A DNA stretch of 64,000 bases from NCBI GenBank assembly GCA_964016885.1, contig OZ024741.1:351478001-351542000 (forward strand), read 5' to 3'. Positions 1,581-64,000 of the stretch are shown here, piece after piece. Source of the stretch: Eledone cirrhosa (taxonomy: Eukaryota). Both the position numbers and the translations under genes were made by a program. The notes under the pieces are model-generated. The model did not search any database, had not been told where the DNA came from, and saw nothing but the letters and a program-made list of their open reading frames with translations. Each line of letters opens with the position of its first letter. Position 1 is the stretch's first letter.

Positions 1581-2420
<840 letters not shown>

Positions 2421-28319: not shown

Positions 28320-31015
28320 TTGTCCAGCCCCATATACATGTAACCCTTATGTTTATATTATTTACTGTATTATATATATATAACATTGTCAGTCCAGCCC
28401 CACATGTATTGTAACCCCCTATGTTTATAATGTTTACTGTATTATATATAACATTGTCAGTCCAGCCCCACATGTATTGTAACCCCCTATGTTTATATTA
28501 TTTACTGTATGGTAACATTGTCAGTCCAACCCCACATGTATTGTAACCCCCTATGTTTATAATGTTTACTGTATTATATATAACATTGTCAGTCCAGCCC
28601 CACATGTAATGTAACGCCCTAAGTTTATATTATTTACTGTATGGTAACATTGTCAGTCCAACCCCACATGTATTGTAACCCCCTATGTTTATAATGTTTA
28701 CTGTATTATATATAACATTGTCAGTCCAGCCCCACATGTAATGTAACGCCCTAAGTTTATATTATTTACTGTATGGTAACATTGTCAGTCCAGCCCCACA
28801 TGTAATGTAACCCCTATGTTTATAATGTTTACTGTATTATATATAACATTGTCAGACTAGCCCCATATGTAATGTAACCCCCTATGTTTATAATGTTTAC
28901 TGTATTATATATAACATTGTCAGTCCAGCCCCACATGTATTGTAACCCCTATGTTTATAATGTTTACTGTATTATATTTAACATTGTCAGTCCAGCCCCA
29001 CATGTAATGTAACCCCTATGTTTATAATGTTTACTGTATTATATATAACATTGTCAGTCCAGCCCCACATGTATTGTAACCCCTATGTTTATAATGTTTA
29101 CTGTATTATATATAACATTGTCAGTCCAGCCCCACATGTAATGTAACCCCCTATGTTTATAATGTTTACTGTATTATATATAACATTGTCAGTCCAGCCC
29201 CACATGTAATGTAACGCCCTATGTTTATAATGTTTACTGTATTATATATAACATTGTCAGTCCAGCCCCACATGTAATGTAACCCCCTATGTTTATAATG
29301 TTTACTGTATTATATATTACATTGTCAGTCCAGCCCCACATGTATTGTAACCCCCTATGTTTATAATGTTTACTGTATTATATATAACATTGTCAGACTA
29401 GCCCCATATGTAATGTAACCCCCTATGTTTATAATGTTTACTGTATTATATATAACATTGTCAGTCCAGCCTCACATGTATTGTAACCCCCTATGTTTAT
29501 AATGTTTACTGTATTATATATAACATTGTCAGTCCAGCCCCACATGTAATGTAACCCCCTATGTTTATAATGTTTACTGTATTATATATAACATTGTCAG
29601 TCCAGCCCCACATGTATTGTAACCCCCTATGTTTATAATGTTTACTGTATTATATATAACATTGTCAGTCCAGCCCCACATGTATTGTAACCCCTATGTT
29701 TATAATGTTTACTGTATTATATATAACATTGTCAGTCCAGCCCCACATGTATTGTAACCCCTATGTTTATAATGTTTACTGTATTATATATAACATTGTC
29801 AGTCCAGCCCCACATGTAATGTAACCCCCTATGTTTATAATGTTTACTGTATTATATATAACATTGTCAGTCCAGCCCCACATGTATTGTAACCCCTATG
29901 TTTATAATGTTTACTGTATTATATATAACATTGTCAGTCCAGCCCCACATGTAATGTAACCCCCTATGTTTATAATGTTTACTGTATTATATATAACATT
30001 GTCAGTCCAGCCCCACATGTAATGTAACCCCCTATGTTTATAATGTTTACTGTATTATATATAACATTGTCAGTCCAGCCCCACATGTAATGTAACCCCT
30101 ATGTTTATAATGTTTACTGTATTATATATAACATTGTCAGTCCAGCCCCACATGTATTGTAACCCCTATGTTTATAATGTTTACTGTATTATATATAACA
30201 TTGTCAGTCCAGCCCCACATGTAATGTAACGCCCTAAGTTTATAATGTTTACTGTATTATATTTAACATTGTCAGTCCAGCCCCACATGTAATGTAACCC
30301 CCTATGTTTATAATGTTTACTGTATTATATATAACATTGTCAGTCCAGCCCCACATGTAATGTAACGCCCTATGTTTATAATGTTTACTGTATTATATAT
30401 AACATTGTCAGTCCAGCCCCACATGTAATGTAACCCCCCTATGTTTATAATGTTTACTGTATTATATATAACATTGTCAGTCCAGCCCCACATGTATTGT
30501 AACCCCCTATGTTTATAATGTTTACTGTATTATATATAACATTGTCAGTCCAGCCCCATATGTAATGTAACCCCCTATGTTTATAATGTTTACTGTATTA
30601 TATATAACATTGTCAGTCCAGCCTCACATGTATTGTAACCCCCTATGTTTATAATGTTTACTGTATTATATATAACATTATCAGTCCAGCCCCACATGTA
30701 ATGTAACCCCCTATGTTTATAATGTTTACTGTATTATATATAACATTGTCAGTCCAGCCCCACATGTAATGTAACCCCCTATGTTTATAATGTTTACTGT
30801 ATTATATATAACATTGTCAGTCCAGCCCCACATGTAATGTAACCCCCTATGTTTATAATGTTTACTGTATTATATATAACATTGTCACTCCAGCCCTACA
30901 TGTAATGTAACCCCCTATGTTTATAATGTTTACTGTATTATATATAACATTGTCAGTCCAGCCCTACATGTAATGTAACGCCCTATGTTTATAATGTTTA
31001 CTGTATTATATATAA
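28320..31015. repeat. Tandem satellite, ~68-bp unit, about 40 copies
   Basis: Unit acattgtcagtccagccccacatgtawtgtaaccccctatgtttataatgtttactgtattatatata; period 68 (28383 to 28451); no unique spacers. Confidence 0.97.
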
Positions 31016-31205
31016 CAAGCATGTCAAACATGCGGCCCTTTACAAGCACACCTGCGTCCCGCACAAATGTTTTTATAGCGCGAGCGTAATATCAAATAAA
31101 AAAGATATTAGTTGTAATGTGGGCAATTAGTTGTCATGTATGGCCCTCAGACAACATATATGTGACCCATGTGTCCCTTGAGGGACCCTCAGTTTGACAT
31201 GCCTG
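31016..31205. mobile_element. 190-bp hAT-type MITE with 8-bp target site duplication
   Basis: TIRs caagcatgtcaaac/gtttgacatgcctg; ATATATAA at 31008-31015 and 31206-31213; partial second copy at 25215-25293. Confidence 0.9.
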
Positions 31206-45783: not shown

Positions 45784-46120
45784 ATAAAATAACAGGAGGC
45801 TGGACTGGTGTAAATCCTTGAAAGGTTTATTATACTATGATCATTTCAATGACCGGGTTCTGTATGAATCCGGTGACATCATAAGGTATTCAAAATATAA
45901 CAAAGGAATATAAGGGCTGCCGACTGAGGTAGAAGCTGCTAAATAGTCGGTCGTCCTCTTGTCTCTGATTTTTAGCCCTATGGATTTTATCTGTTATATA
46001 CCTTTGTTATATTTTGAATACCTGATGATGTCACCGGACTCATACTGAACCCGGTCATTGAAATGATCATAGTATAATAAACCTTTCAAGGATTTACACC
46101 AGTCCAGCCTCCTGTTATTT

Positions 46121-55999: not shown

Positions 56000-56037
56000 C
56001 GAGAACAATTGTTTCACCTTAGCGGATCCTCAGCTCG
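56000..56037 (-). ncRNA. Minimal hammerhead
   Basis: cgag CTGAGGA t cc-gctaa-gg t GAA acaattgt T ctcg. Confidence 0.8.
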
Positions 56038-57344: not shown

Positions 57345-58441
57345 ACGAGGTGTGTCAGAAAGTTCCAGGACTGATGTCACAAAAGATTTATTTCAAACCC
57401 AAACTTCACACTAAGAGTTTTCTCCTTCAAAGTAATCCCCCTGGAGTCTAAGTAATCCCTCTGGAGCACTTTTCCATCCTTTTCTGCCACGCTTGCATGC
57501 ACTCCTGGAAGGATTCTTCCGGGATCCTCCGCAGTTCCATCGTCACGGCCTTTTTGATGTCGTCCACGTCTTCAAAACGAGTCCCCTTGATGACCTCCTT
57601 GAGCTTGATTAATAGGAAAAAATCACACGGAGCTAGGTCAGGGGAGTAGGGAGATTGCTGCAGCACGGCGATGTTCTTCTCGGCCAGGAACTGTCGGATG
57701 CTCAGGGCATTGTAAACAGGCGCGTTGTCATGGTGAAGCAGCCACGAGTTGTCCTGCCACAACTCTCGCCTCTTCTCACGCACTGAACGAAGCAAACGCT
57801 GCAGTATCTCTTTGTAGACATGTTGGTTGATCGTCTGGCCCTGTGGCAAGAACTCGCAGTGGACGATCCCCCTCATATCAAAGAATGTGATCAACACGAC
57901 CTTGACTTTGGATTTCGACTGTCGTGCTTTCTTCGGCCTTGGCGATGACGGACTCTTCCACTGTGGTTTCCGGGTCGTACTCGAAGATCCATGACTCATC
58001 CCCGGTGATGACTGTCCCTAGCAAGTCTGGTTCGGTTTTAAGACGCTCGAGGATGTCCTGGCACACTTACATGCGTCGACCCTTCTGGTCATTGTTCAGC
58101 AGTTTTGGCACCATCTTCGCGCAGACTTTCCGCATGTCCAAATCTTCAGTGAGAATCTTCCAGACGCTGTCCCGATTCATGCCCAGCTCATTTGCCATCA
58201 GTCGAACAGTCAGCTGACGATCGCTACGCACCATCTGCCTGACGCGCTCAACGTTGACCTCAGTCCTGGTTGTTGAGGGCCTTCCGCTCCTGGGGTCATC
58301 TTCCACGTCCTCGCGTCCTTCTTTAAACCTTTTGCACCACTCAAAAACACGTGAGCGTGACATCGTCTCATCTCCATACACTTGCTTCAGCAATCCCAGT
58401 GTTTCTGACAGAGTTTTCCCCAACCGTACCAGAAACTTCAA
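57345..58441 (-). mobile_element. Mariner transposon, frameshifted, 5' end lost
   Basis: HTH region, VPKLL, ITGDESW, HHDNAP, YSPDLAPCDF; terminal repeat after TA near 57345. Confidence 0.93.
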
Positions 58442-58615
58442 TATATATATATATACTGTATATATATATATTAGAATTGGTGCTCTGAAATAGCGATGTA
58501 TATATGAATGTATATATAGTGTATTTGATAATACATAGTCACTACTTTAAAACAATAGCGTAAGGTCTTCAAAATGTTAAGCATACAGTGTATTACCAAA
58601 TACACCATATATACA

Positions 58616-61868: not shown

Positions 61869-61925
<57 letters not shown>

Positions 61926-62060
61926 ACTAGAAATAGATTGACATATATATATATAAAATAAACATATGAAACAATCACAGGGAATAATTTGTAAAGAATG
62001 TAAGCACACATAGCTAGGTAGGTAACTAATTAAAGTTTAACTAGAACTTCAAATGATTAA

Positions 62061-62155
62061 TCTCCTTTGTATATATTTCTTTAAGTAAGAAATATATTTC
62101 ACCAATTAATCCGGAAATCACAGTAGTCAAATTCCCGGATGGTCACCAAAGGAGA
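62061..62155 (-). ncRNA. Hammerhead with G3:C8 core
   Basis: tctcctttg GTGACCA t ccgg...ttgg t GAA atatatttct/agaaatatat A caaaggaga. Confidence 0.72.
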
Positions 62156-62478
62156 AGAAGATAACTATCTGCGTTTACAAAGCAAATGCAAATCTGTGAA
62201 TGACTCGAAGCACGTGTTGCATTTTAAAAAAAATACACAGATTGGACAACGTCATCCCAGTGGCGTGAATAGGACCAAATTTTGGATATATATACGGCCC
62301 CTTGATTGTTGAGCTAATTCAGTTGAATAGACTCGGCTGCTATTTCTGGCTGTCGATGGTCCTATTCACGCCACTGGGATGACGTTGTCCAATCTGTGTA
62401 TTTTTTTTTAAATGCAACACGTGGTTCGAGTCATTCACAGATTTGCATTTGCTTTGTAAACGCAGATAGTTATCTTCT

Positions 62479-62573
62479 TCTCCTTTGGTGACCATCAGGG
62501 AATTTGACTACTGTGATTTCCGGATTAATTGGTGAAATATATTTCTTACTTAAAGAAATATATACAAAGGAGA
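62479..62573 (+). ncRNA. Hammerhead with G3:C8 core
   Basis: GTGACCA 62488-62494; GAAA 62534-62537; 10-bp stem III, 9-bp stem I; stem II weak. Confidence 0.68.
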
Positions 62574-62826
62574 TTAATCATTTTAAAAGGTATCTATATT
62601 TGAGGTTCTAGTTAAACTTTAATTAGTTACCTACCTAGCTATGTGTGCTGACATTCTTTACAAATTATTCCCTGTGATTGTTTCATATGTTTATTTTATA
62701 TATATATATATGTCAATCTATTTCTAGTTGATATGTAATGCTCGGATCTTTTCGTTGGAATCTTTGAGCTTATTCTACAGTGGATATGGCGCATGTCTCT
62801 CAGACATGAAAACCCTTAATTTTAAT

Positions 62827-62908
<82 letters not shown>

Positions 62909-63380: not shown

Positions 63381-64000
63381 CTAATATTTTCTATTTAATT
63401 TTTGTTGTAATTCTTTTATGTTTATTGCCTCTGTAATTTGTCTAAACATTGCGTCTTTTCTGTGTGTAGATTCTATTTTTATTTCTATGCTCTCTAATTT
63501 ACCCTTGTGTTCTATTTTAGCATGTTGGTAGAGTACAGATGATTCTTTACTATCTTGAAGGTCTCGCCAGTGTTCATTTATCCGTTCCCCTACACTACGA
63601 GCTGTCTCACCTATGTACACTATATTTTTGTCTCTACATTGTCCTTCAGTACATCTTATGCTATATACTACATTTCTAGTTTTACAGTTAATATGGGGGC
63701 TTATTTTACAGGTTATACATTTCTTATCTATACATGAGGGTCTTTGAAAAGGGTATGTCTTGCTAATAAGTGTTTTTACGGAGGTACCTGGTCTTTCTAC
63801 TATCTTAATATTGAATTTATGTTTATTTAGGGCCCTTCTAAATTTGTAAGCTAATTCACCTCTAGGGGTTGTATCGATGAACATTACACTCTGGTATTTA
63901 TTGCTATCATACCATGAGTTTATTCTATTAGCCTTGTTCCTAGTTCTTTCTATTCTATTCCAAAATTTGCTCCTATACAAGGGGCAGGTCCCATTTATGT
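63381..64000 (-). CDS. C-terminal GIY-YIG endonuclease of a second Penelope-like family; ORF runs off the window
   Basis: IKIVERPG, C..C, NCKTRNVVYSIRC, YIGETARS..ER..EH, RQITEA..I, LN.K. Confidence 0.88.
   Translation of the reverse strand, partial: INGTCPLYRSKFWNRIERTRNKANRINSWYDSNKYQSVMFIDTTPRGELAYKFRRALNKHKFNIKIVERPGTSVKTLISKTYPFQRPSCIDKKCITCKISPHINCKTRNVVYSIRCTEGQCRDKNIVYIGETARSVGERINEHWRDLQDSKESSVLYQHAKIEHKGKLESIEIKIESTHRKDAMFRQITEAINIKELQQKLNRKY

Follow-up and report, generated by a model that had tools for sequence, protein, structure and literature searches.

The C3-G8 base pair of the hammerhead ribozyme is present only in the active conformation. In the available excerpts of Roberts et al. 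2023 (PMC9901934), a pairwise screen identified C3G/G8C as the sole rescuing double change in the region, and in those of Frangieh et al. 2024 (PMC11167929) the same swap partly rescued a Penelope hammerhead. The premise of an earlier sequence-only reading of this DNA, that swapping both bases restores activity in model ribozymes, agrees with both papers. The excerpted text of PMC11167929 also describes an anole Penelope-like element, for which insertion in vitro was unaffected by hammerhead mutants and two internal reverse-transcription starts accounted for the alternative ends. Natural hammerheads with U3-A8 have been published (PMC3088659, Perreault et al. 2011; PMC4209133), and the accessible portion of the former gives natural precedent for U10.1.U11.1 closure and for stem I-II pseudoknots. 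The U.U at the helix II base of the axolotl HHR_Amex2, in extracts of PMC7229834 (Cervera and de la Pena 2020), is a further precedent. Metazoan retrozymes are proposed to be non-autonomous Penelope derivatives in the available parts of PMC7229834, PMC7761336 and 10.64898/2026.07.22.740005 (Li, Clavereau and Pollet 2026). The literature search found no published report of a natural G3-C8 hammerhead; alignments, supplements and figures outside that search may contain one.

The window analysed here (the whole 64,000-nucleotide stretch from Eledone cirrhosa) carries two copies with G3 and C8 and one homologue with C3 and G8. The feature is more extensive than first described, being a three-state core pair within one family. 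These copies belong to a Penelope-style, non-coding family with upwards of 2,000 members, in which the type I motif carries G3:C8, U3:A8 or C3:G8 according to subfamily and the variant with G3:C8 probably retains self-cleavage. The argument for function is drawn from covariation and engineered precedents.

Hammerhead motifs in the window

Both strands of the window were scanned with a descriptor in which positions 3, 7 and 8 were free, stem I was at least 7 bp and stem III at least 4 bp. It returned three hammerhead-like motifs of type I and no others. The motif at 2002-2092 (+) has the canonical core CUGAUGA (2011-2017) and a predicted cut after 2083. That at 62479-62573 (+) has the core GUGACCA at 62488-62494, with G3 at 62488 and C8 at 62493. 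Its stem I comprises 62479-62487 with 62565-62573 and its stem II 62495-62498 with 62530-62533, closed by U.U and with pair 10.3 broken in this arm; GAAA lies at 62534-62537, stem III spans 62537-62563 and the predicted H17 is 62564. The motif at 62061-62155 (-) has the core GUGACCA at 62146-62140, an intact stem II and a predicted cut after 62070. The consensus letters C3 and G8 are absent from both of these arms, which have G3 and C8 instead, and position 7 likewise differs between the core types (U in 2002-2092, C in the GUGACCA arms).

The scan bore out the difference that the sequence-only reading had drawn between CUGAUGA at 2002-2092 and GUGACCA in both arms of 62061-62573. Its claim of homology also held (84% mean column identity across the three aligned units), as did continued pairing of stem I (9 bp in each unit) and stem III, which has 11 bp in both G copies and a contiguous run of 5 bp in the C one. 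The cut that it placed after 62564 falls at the correct H17 position. The + arm is a poor copy for the cleavage test that it proposed, as 62497 breaks a stem II pair and 62520 a pair of an extra helix described below. The two arms align with 6 mismatches and 20 gap letters over 381 columns; being an inverted pair from a single insertion, they were treated as one observation.

The core order U4 G5 A6 N7, A9, G12 A13 A14, A15.1-U16.1, H17 is found in the window motifs. Across 71 aligned G3:C8 rows, A15.1 was present in 71, U16.1 in 70 and H17 in 71. Positions 4-6 and 9 and GAAA were partly set by the search patterns, and the 60 loci obtained by DNA search carry them as well. N7 varies freely among G3:C8 rows, which is the expected behaviour.

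Rfam gave no hammerhead match for the whole window or for either sub-region, and thus missed variant and canonical copy alike. The expectation that canonical-core searches would overlook the swap is upheld in so far as C3:G8 makes up a minority of the family (counts below), but the swap is not the sole reason that searches fail, because Rfam is blind to the canonical copy too.

Elsewhere in the window, an inverted pair at 56033 (-) and 56084 (+) bears another small hammerhead-like motif of unrelated sequence (core CUGAGGA, short stem II closed by U.U, GAAAC). An inverted repeat at 45842-46065 has CUGAUGA (core at 46022) and then GAAA in its + arm, with a longer stem II likewise closed by U.U, and is possibly a third hammerhead family. 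Further canonical-core hammerhead-like motifs lie in other repeat families of the genome (C1:41128795, C1:93308579, and L240 at 37 and 4555), one of them behind a Penelope-type reading frame. The window also contains a 68-bp tandem array at 28322-31017 (about 40 copies, 94% alike) and, at 57448-58546 (-), broken transposase reading frames that are presumably mariner-like.

The repeat unit and its insertion pattern

The unit is a non-coding repeat of 546-550 nt, with one type I hammerhead motif per tandem unit; it sits in (TA)n and shows tandem and inverted joints in the Penelope style. Periods measured in natural dimers were 546 nt for both the G and the U subfamily and 550 nt for the C subfamily. 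A single insertion in (TA)n at 61917-62828 consists of a + arm (62278-62828), approximately one unit long and terminating at the distal fixed 3' end of the family, and, head to head with it, an inverted 5'-truncated - arm (61917-62277) that terminates at the proximal fixed 3' end. The homologous insertion of the C3:G8 subfamily, also in (TA)n, occupies 1706-2358 (+) and amounts to approximately 1.2 units, the first 110 nt or so being directly repeated.

DNA searches of the 3.0 Gb genome with either window copy returned more than 1,200 first-look candidates each. At 60 fetched loci the shared sequence was limited to the unit, which occurred as truncated monomers, 1.2-mers, dimers and inverted pairs. 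Among 345 mapped segments, each subfamily had its 3' ends clustered at two to four sites, with the 5' ends dispersed. The family and its common letters were present in three contig runs. Partial tandems, inverted 5'-truncated copies, fixed alternative 3' ends and microsatellite targets, all traits of Penelope-like non-autonomous elements, are present, and the insertion pattern is that described for Penelope-like elements. As predicted from DNA, the element would thus work like an animal retrozyme.

Long open frames in 238 loci lay in flanking, unrelated repeats. Frames flanking the unit (L036/L240, L098 and the window end) were considered as an autonomous partner and rejected as separate insertions; the unit is not present as the repeat of the three neighbouring Penelope-type reading frames. 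Among reading frames neighbouring the fetched loci, none proved to be an autonomous partner with the unit in common. The frame at the window end (63381-64000, -, continuing into L239 1382-2521) is 5'-truncated, of Penelope type and in adjoining (TA)n, with a reverse transcriptase end and GIY-YIG (Pfam E 0.00024, slightly below the curated cut-off). It has no sequence in common with the hammerhead unit, and a second partial copy of it lies about 6 kb further.

Covariation of positions 3 and 8

Whole-genome counts were made with the flanks and U4, G5, A6 and A9 fixed, so that only copies with the pattern flanks were counted. U3:A8 was the dominant state among the 2,092 family matches (1,281), followed by G3:C8 (482) and C3:G8 (220); 109 were mismatched at 3:8. 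A Watson-Crick pair was present in 1,983 of 2,092 (94.8%), against 47% expected under independence. The numbers refer to copies and are raised by subfamily expansion, by inverted arms and by duplicates; the switches behind them are only about three or four. Reversed-pattern controls gave 0 in all counts.

A3 or U3 with any base at 8 gave 1,331 matches, including 37 U3 with non-A8 and 13 A3, of which none was A3:U8 in the whole-genome count. C3 with non-G8 occurred 35 times and G3 with non-C8 24 times. The mismatch classes, tallied by hand from the listed matches, were U3:G8 (22 copies, the largest), C3:A8 (21), G3:A8 (11), G3:U8 (11), U3:C8 (11) and C3:C8 (9), with at most 5 in each remaining class. 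Independent occurrence of G3 and C8 across genomic copies had been named beforehand as the outcome that would count against a compensatory change. The two proved to be linked, with C8 in 482 of 506 G3 copies and G3 in 482 of 507 C8 copies. Freeing positions 3-9 raised the matches from 2,092 to 2,445 (chance control 181), and there is therefore no large subfamily with other core changes in these flanks. Selection is likely to have acted on the pair itself and not on its letters.

Predicted secondary structure

The motif has three helices round the core and is open at helix I; helix II is 2-4 bp and helix III 8-11 bp. Pairing was scored on an alignment of 80 copies chosen from those with a Watson-Crick 3:8 pair, so that the 100% pairing at 3:8 in these rows is by construction. 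In the named structure 94.6% of cells were paired, whereas slid partners reached 39-51%; because related sequences can beat a shuffle control without structure, weight was placed on specific changes. Cells were paired in 95% (stem I), 94.5% (stem II) and 98% (stem III) of cases. Two-sided changes were seen at 4 of 9 stem I pairs, with U-A/C-G switches at three pairs, at 1 of 3 stem II pairs and at none of the 8 pairs of stem III, which is almost invariant. The stem II pairs are U.U, C-G, C-G or U-A, and R-U; the usual G10.1-C11.1 closing pair is absent, with U.U in 80 of 80 rows. A different register of the kind found in Penelope minimal motifs, with one more nucleotide following A9 and a G10.1-C11.1 pair, was rejected because 10.1 would be C opposite U.

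Two extra helices are predicted. P0 joins the 5' flank to loop II (62456-62472 with 62505-62521, spanning 62456-62521 on the + strand), is 16 bp in the family and crosses stems I and II, with two-sided changes at 8 of 16 pairs. Young U3:A8 lineages altered both P0 strands together: calculated energies were -14.6 and -14.2 kcal/mol with their own partner strand, against -5.7 to -10.5 with strands of the G or C subfamily. P4 joins loop II (62523-62528) to 62574-62579 directly behind stem I (62523-62579, +), is 6 bp and varies on one side only. Since hardly any spacers separate P0, stem I, P4 and stem II, a four-helix clamp is suggested, in which the two extra helices, one of them covarying, may clamp stems I and II. 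By reasoning only, the full 16-bp P0 and stem II may be sterically incompatible; alternatively, a complete P0 might form a hairpin in competition with the active fold.

Within the 71 G3:C8 rows, pairing was kept in 12 of 21 variants common to at least three copies and in 11 of 71 rare ones (Fisher p 0.0003). Pairing was thus retained much more often in shared variants, and constraint on the fold therefore persisted after the swap. RNAalifold recovered stems I and III; stem II and P0 were not recovered. The caution of the sequence-only reading that stem II is weak was justified, its nested-fold probability being near 0 in all subfamilies, the canonical one included (0.00-0.02 free, 0.03-0.20 with P0 strands blocked).

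History of the core pair

Trees were built with columns 3, 7 and 8 masked from 146 of 235, 149 of 274, 85 and 103 units; truncated or surplus near-copies were dropped, and L020, L098 and L172 were omitted from some trees. G3:C8 formed a single clade in the masked tree (26 of 26 rows, support 95/90). Four changes on the tree are required to account for the three states (minimum two), and in AU tests one clade was not rejected for U3:A8 (p 0.092) or C3:G8 (p 0.117). Mismatch copies were scattered within clades, as expected for post-insertion decay.

An older subfamily was obtained by DNA search, with C3:G8 in 23 of 30 copies and nearest neighbours 81-89% alike. C is found at core position 4 in 17 of these 30 copies (L259-L288; CCGAUGA and derivatives), and with U4C amplified there, the core therefore drifted even at a position usually held fixed. 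When the tree was rooted on this subfamily the basal rows were C3:G8, and one more old-type row grouped with the outgroup. A node with support 96/96 contains all 25 U3:A8 rows, two C3:G8 rows, two G3:A8 rows, the G3:C8 clade (91/77 in this tree) and the C3:G8 clade holding the 2002-2092 copy, which nests inside U3:A8 (97/86, 98/90, 100/92). This placement does not fit the assumption that 2002-2092 represents the ancestral canonical form; it is probably a reversion. The proposed lineage with a double change stands, as one amplifying G3:C8 clade with its helices kept, but a direct swap from the 2002-2092 homologue is improbable on the rooted tree, and G3:C8 probably arose among U3:A8 copies. Probably the pair went from C-G to U-A, after which U-A gave rise to G-C on one occasion, possibly through G3:A8, and separately returned to C-G. 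A direct change from C-G to G-C may be an alternative path, and recombination between subfamilies could mimic repeated switches.

The earliest-branching G3:C8 copies are GUGAACA, with A7 kept from UUGAAAA. A7 is found again in a later G3:C8 sub-lineage, and 20 of 71 G3:C8 rows are not C7. The basal flank context has 37 matches, with all three states present. G3:A8 against G3:C8 was 3 against 9 in this context and 8 against 473 elsewhere (p 0.002), a comparison picked post hoc from data already seen. G3 makes 62485-62491 identical over 7 letters to 62529-62535, the strand entering GAAA, and could have come by copying from that strand during reverse transcription.

Cleavage and competing explanations

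Under the preferred reading, in which the G3:C8 form still self-cleaves, read-through transcripts of tandem copies would fold stems I-III. P0, from the 5' flank and loop II, and P4, behind stem I, would keep stems I and II alongside each other, replacing the usual loop-loop contact and compensating for the 2-4-bp stem II. The RNA would be cut after H17 to give unit-length RNA, possibly circularised. Reverse transcription of uncut or re-ligated RNA into nicked (TA)n, beginning at two or three internal sites, would be carried out by a Penelope-like reverse transcriptase-endonuclease supplied in trans. The core would have passed from C-G to U-A, from U-A to G-C once, possibly via G3:A8, and from U-A back to C-G.

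The 5' ends were not piled at the predicted cut: 4 of 153 G segments began within 4 nt of it, and 1 of 192 segments began exactly there. That single start, a G3:C8-lineage inverted joint (L193, at about 1390), is not above chance. An excess of 5' ends at the cut in the U subfamily (9 of 77) was not borne out on junction inspection. This lack of a pile-up would suit an account in which cleavage is unneeded for spread and the 3:8 states hitch-hiked neutrally as founder mutations of a few source copies, as would the small number of events underlying the states, the amplification of U4C in the older subfamily and, in the excerpts of PMC11167929, insertion in vitro unimpaired by hammerhead mutants. 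Such an account is rather improbable, given that every switch altered both positions and ended on a Watson-Crick pair, that no mismatch class exceeds 22 of 2,092 copies and that freeing positions 3-9 adds few matches (2,445, chance control 181).

It is also unlikely that the hammerhead forms only in dimers or in trans, with a P0 hairpin that loops out half of the core and blocks cleavage of monomers. In 3 of 8 copies P0 is the main hairpin of the predicted fold, with the core inside it; tandem copies with two motifs occur, and dimer cleavage is described for animal hammerheads. But stem III is long and stable (98% paired), unlike that of dimer-dependent minimal motifs, and contacts in which a helix links stems I and II are known to be activating. 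Mispairing of ACCA with UGGU, foreseen by the sequence-only reading, is favoured by nested folding in both window arms (0.75 and 0.99), where a rare change (62520 and 62114) lengthens the helix; in the + arm, A at 62497 breaks stem II as well. The window copies may be inactive even if the G3:C8 subfamily is active. That the GUGACCA subfamily as a whole was switched off or slowed by this helix, and spreads from uncut RNA, is quite unlikely. The helix averages 0.19-0.28 across 27 G3:C8 rows, but it falls to 0.04 in the + arm when the P0 strands are blocked, A7, present in the earliest copies and again in a later sub-lineage, prevents its full formation, and it leaves G3 unexplained.

Discussion

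G3-C8 has served as a laboratory rescue control, and a natural lineage fixed for it is described here. Together with its U-A and C-G sister lineages, all on one scaffold, it allows three questions to be put to matched molecules: which of the pairs performs best, by what route compensatory changes get past a mismatched state, and whether spread of the Penelope type depends on cleavage. A search restricted to CUGAnGA would overlook roughly nine of every ten family members, C3:G8 accounting for 220 of the 2,092 matches. More tentatively, a mobile RNA family may have walked its catalytic pair from C-G to U-A to G-C, and from U-A to C-G, leaving G3:A8 intermediates, with the four-helix clamp, in which P0 and P4 cap stems I and II, pre-organising the core sufficiently to let all three states and some mismatches cleave; this fuller account is possible but doubtful. 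If true, the three-state walk with its clamp would document in nature how a ribozyme crossed a fitness valley, and the clamp would be a hammerhead scaffold of which the literature search found no description.

Engineered C3G/G8C hammerheads (PMC9901934, PMC11167929, PMC8495972, PMC3884650, each as excerpted) have the same swap and full or partial rescue of cleavage. They are laboratory mutants on other scaffolds, whereas the present case is a natural lineage with at least 482 genomic matches. The U3-A8 hammerheads (PMC3088659; Schistosoma Cercyon, PMC4209133, Cervera and de la Pena 2014) share natural 3:8 covariation in a Penelope context. In the accessible portions of these reports there are about 1,300 U3-A8 matches in one animal genome and opposite-strand motif pairs, as here; those portions of PMC3088659 and PMC4209133 contain neither a natural G3-C8 nor three states in one family. 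The Schistosoma motifs are described there as minimal and without helix III, which the present family has. The absent or very short palindromic helix III and long helix II of minimal hammerheads in Penelope pseudo-LTRs are likewise absent here.

Metazoan non-LTR retrozymes, as described in the parts available of PMC7229834, PMC7761336 and 10.64898/2026.07.22.740005, resemble the family in being dispersed non-coding units with one type I hammerhead, found as monomers and tandem dimers. The family differs in its non-canonical 3:8 pair in most copies, its frequent inverted joints and its long loop II with predicted P0 and P4 in place of the loop 1-loop 2 contact. Retrozymes accumulate as circular RNA, whereas the present family is known from DNA. 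Penelope-like elements differ in that the unit here is without an open reading frame. Alternative ends lie about 90-130 nt apart here and 30-40 nt apart in those elements, according to the excerpted text of Craig et al. (10.1101/2021.04.23.441226). The same source describes partial tandems, 5'-truncated inverted copies, alternative 3' ends (tail) and (TA)n targets, all of which the two have in common.
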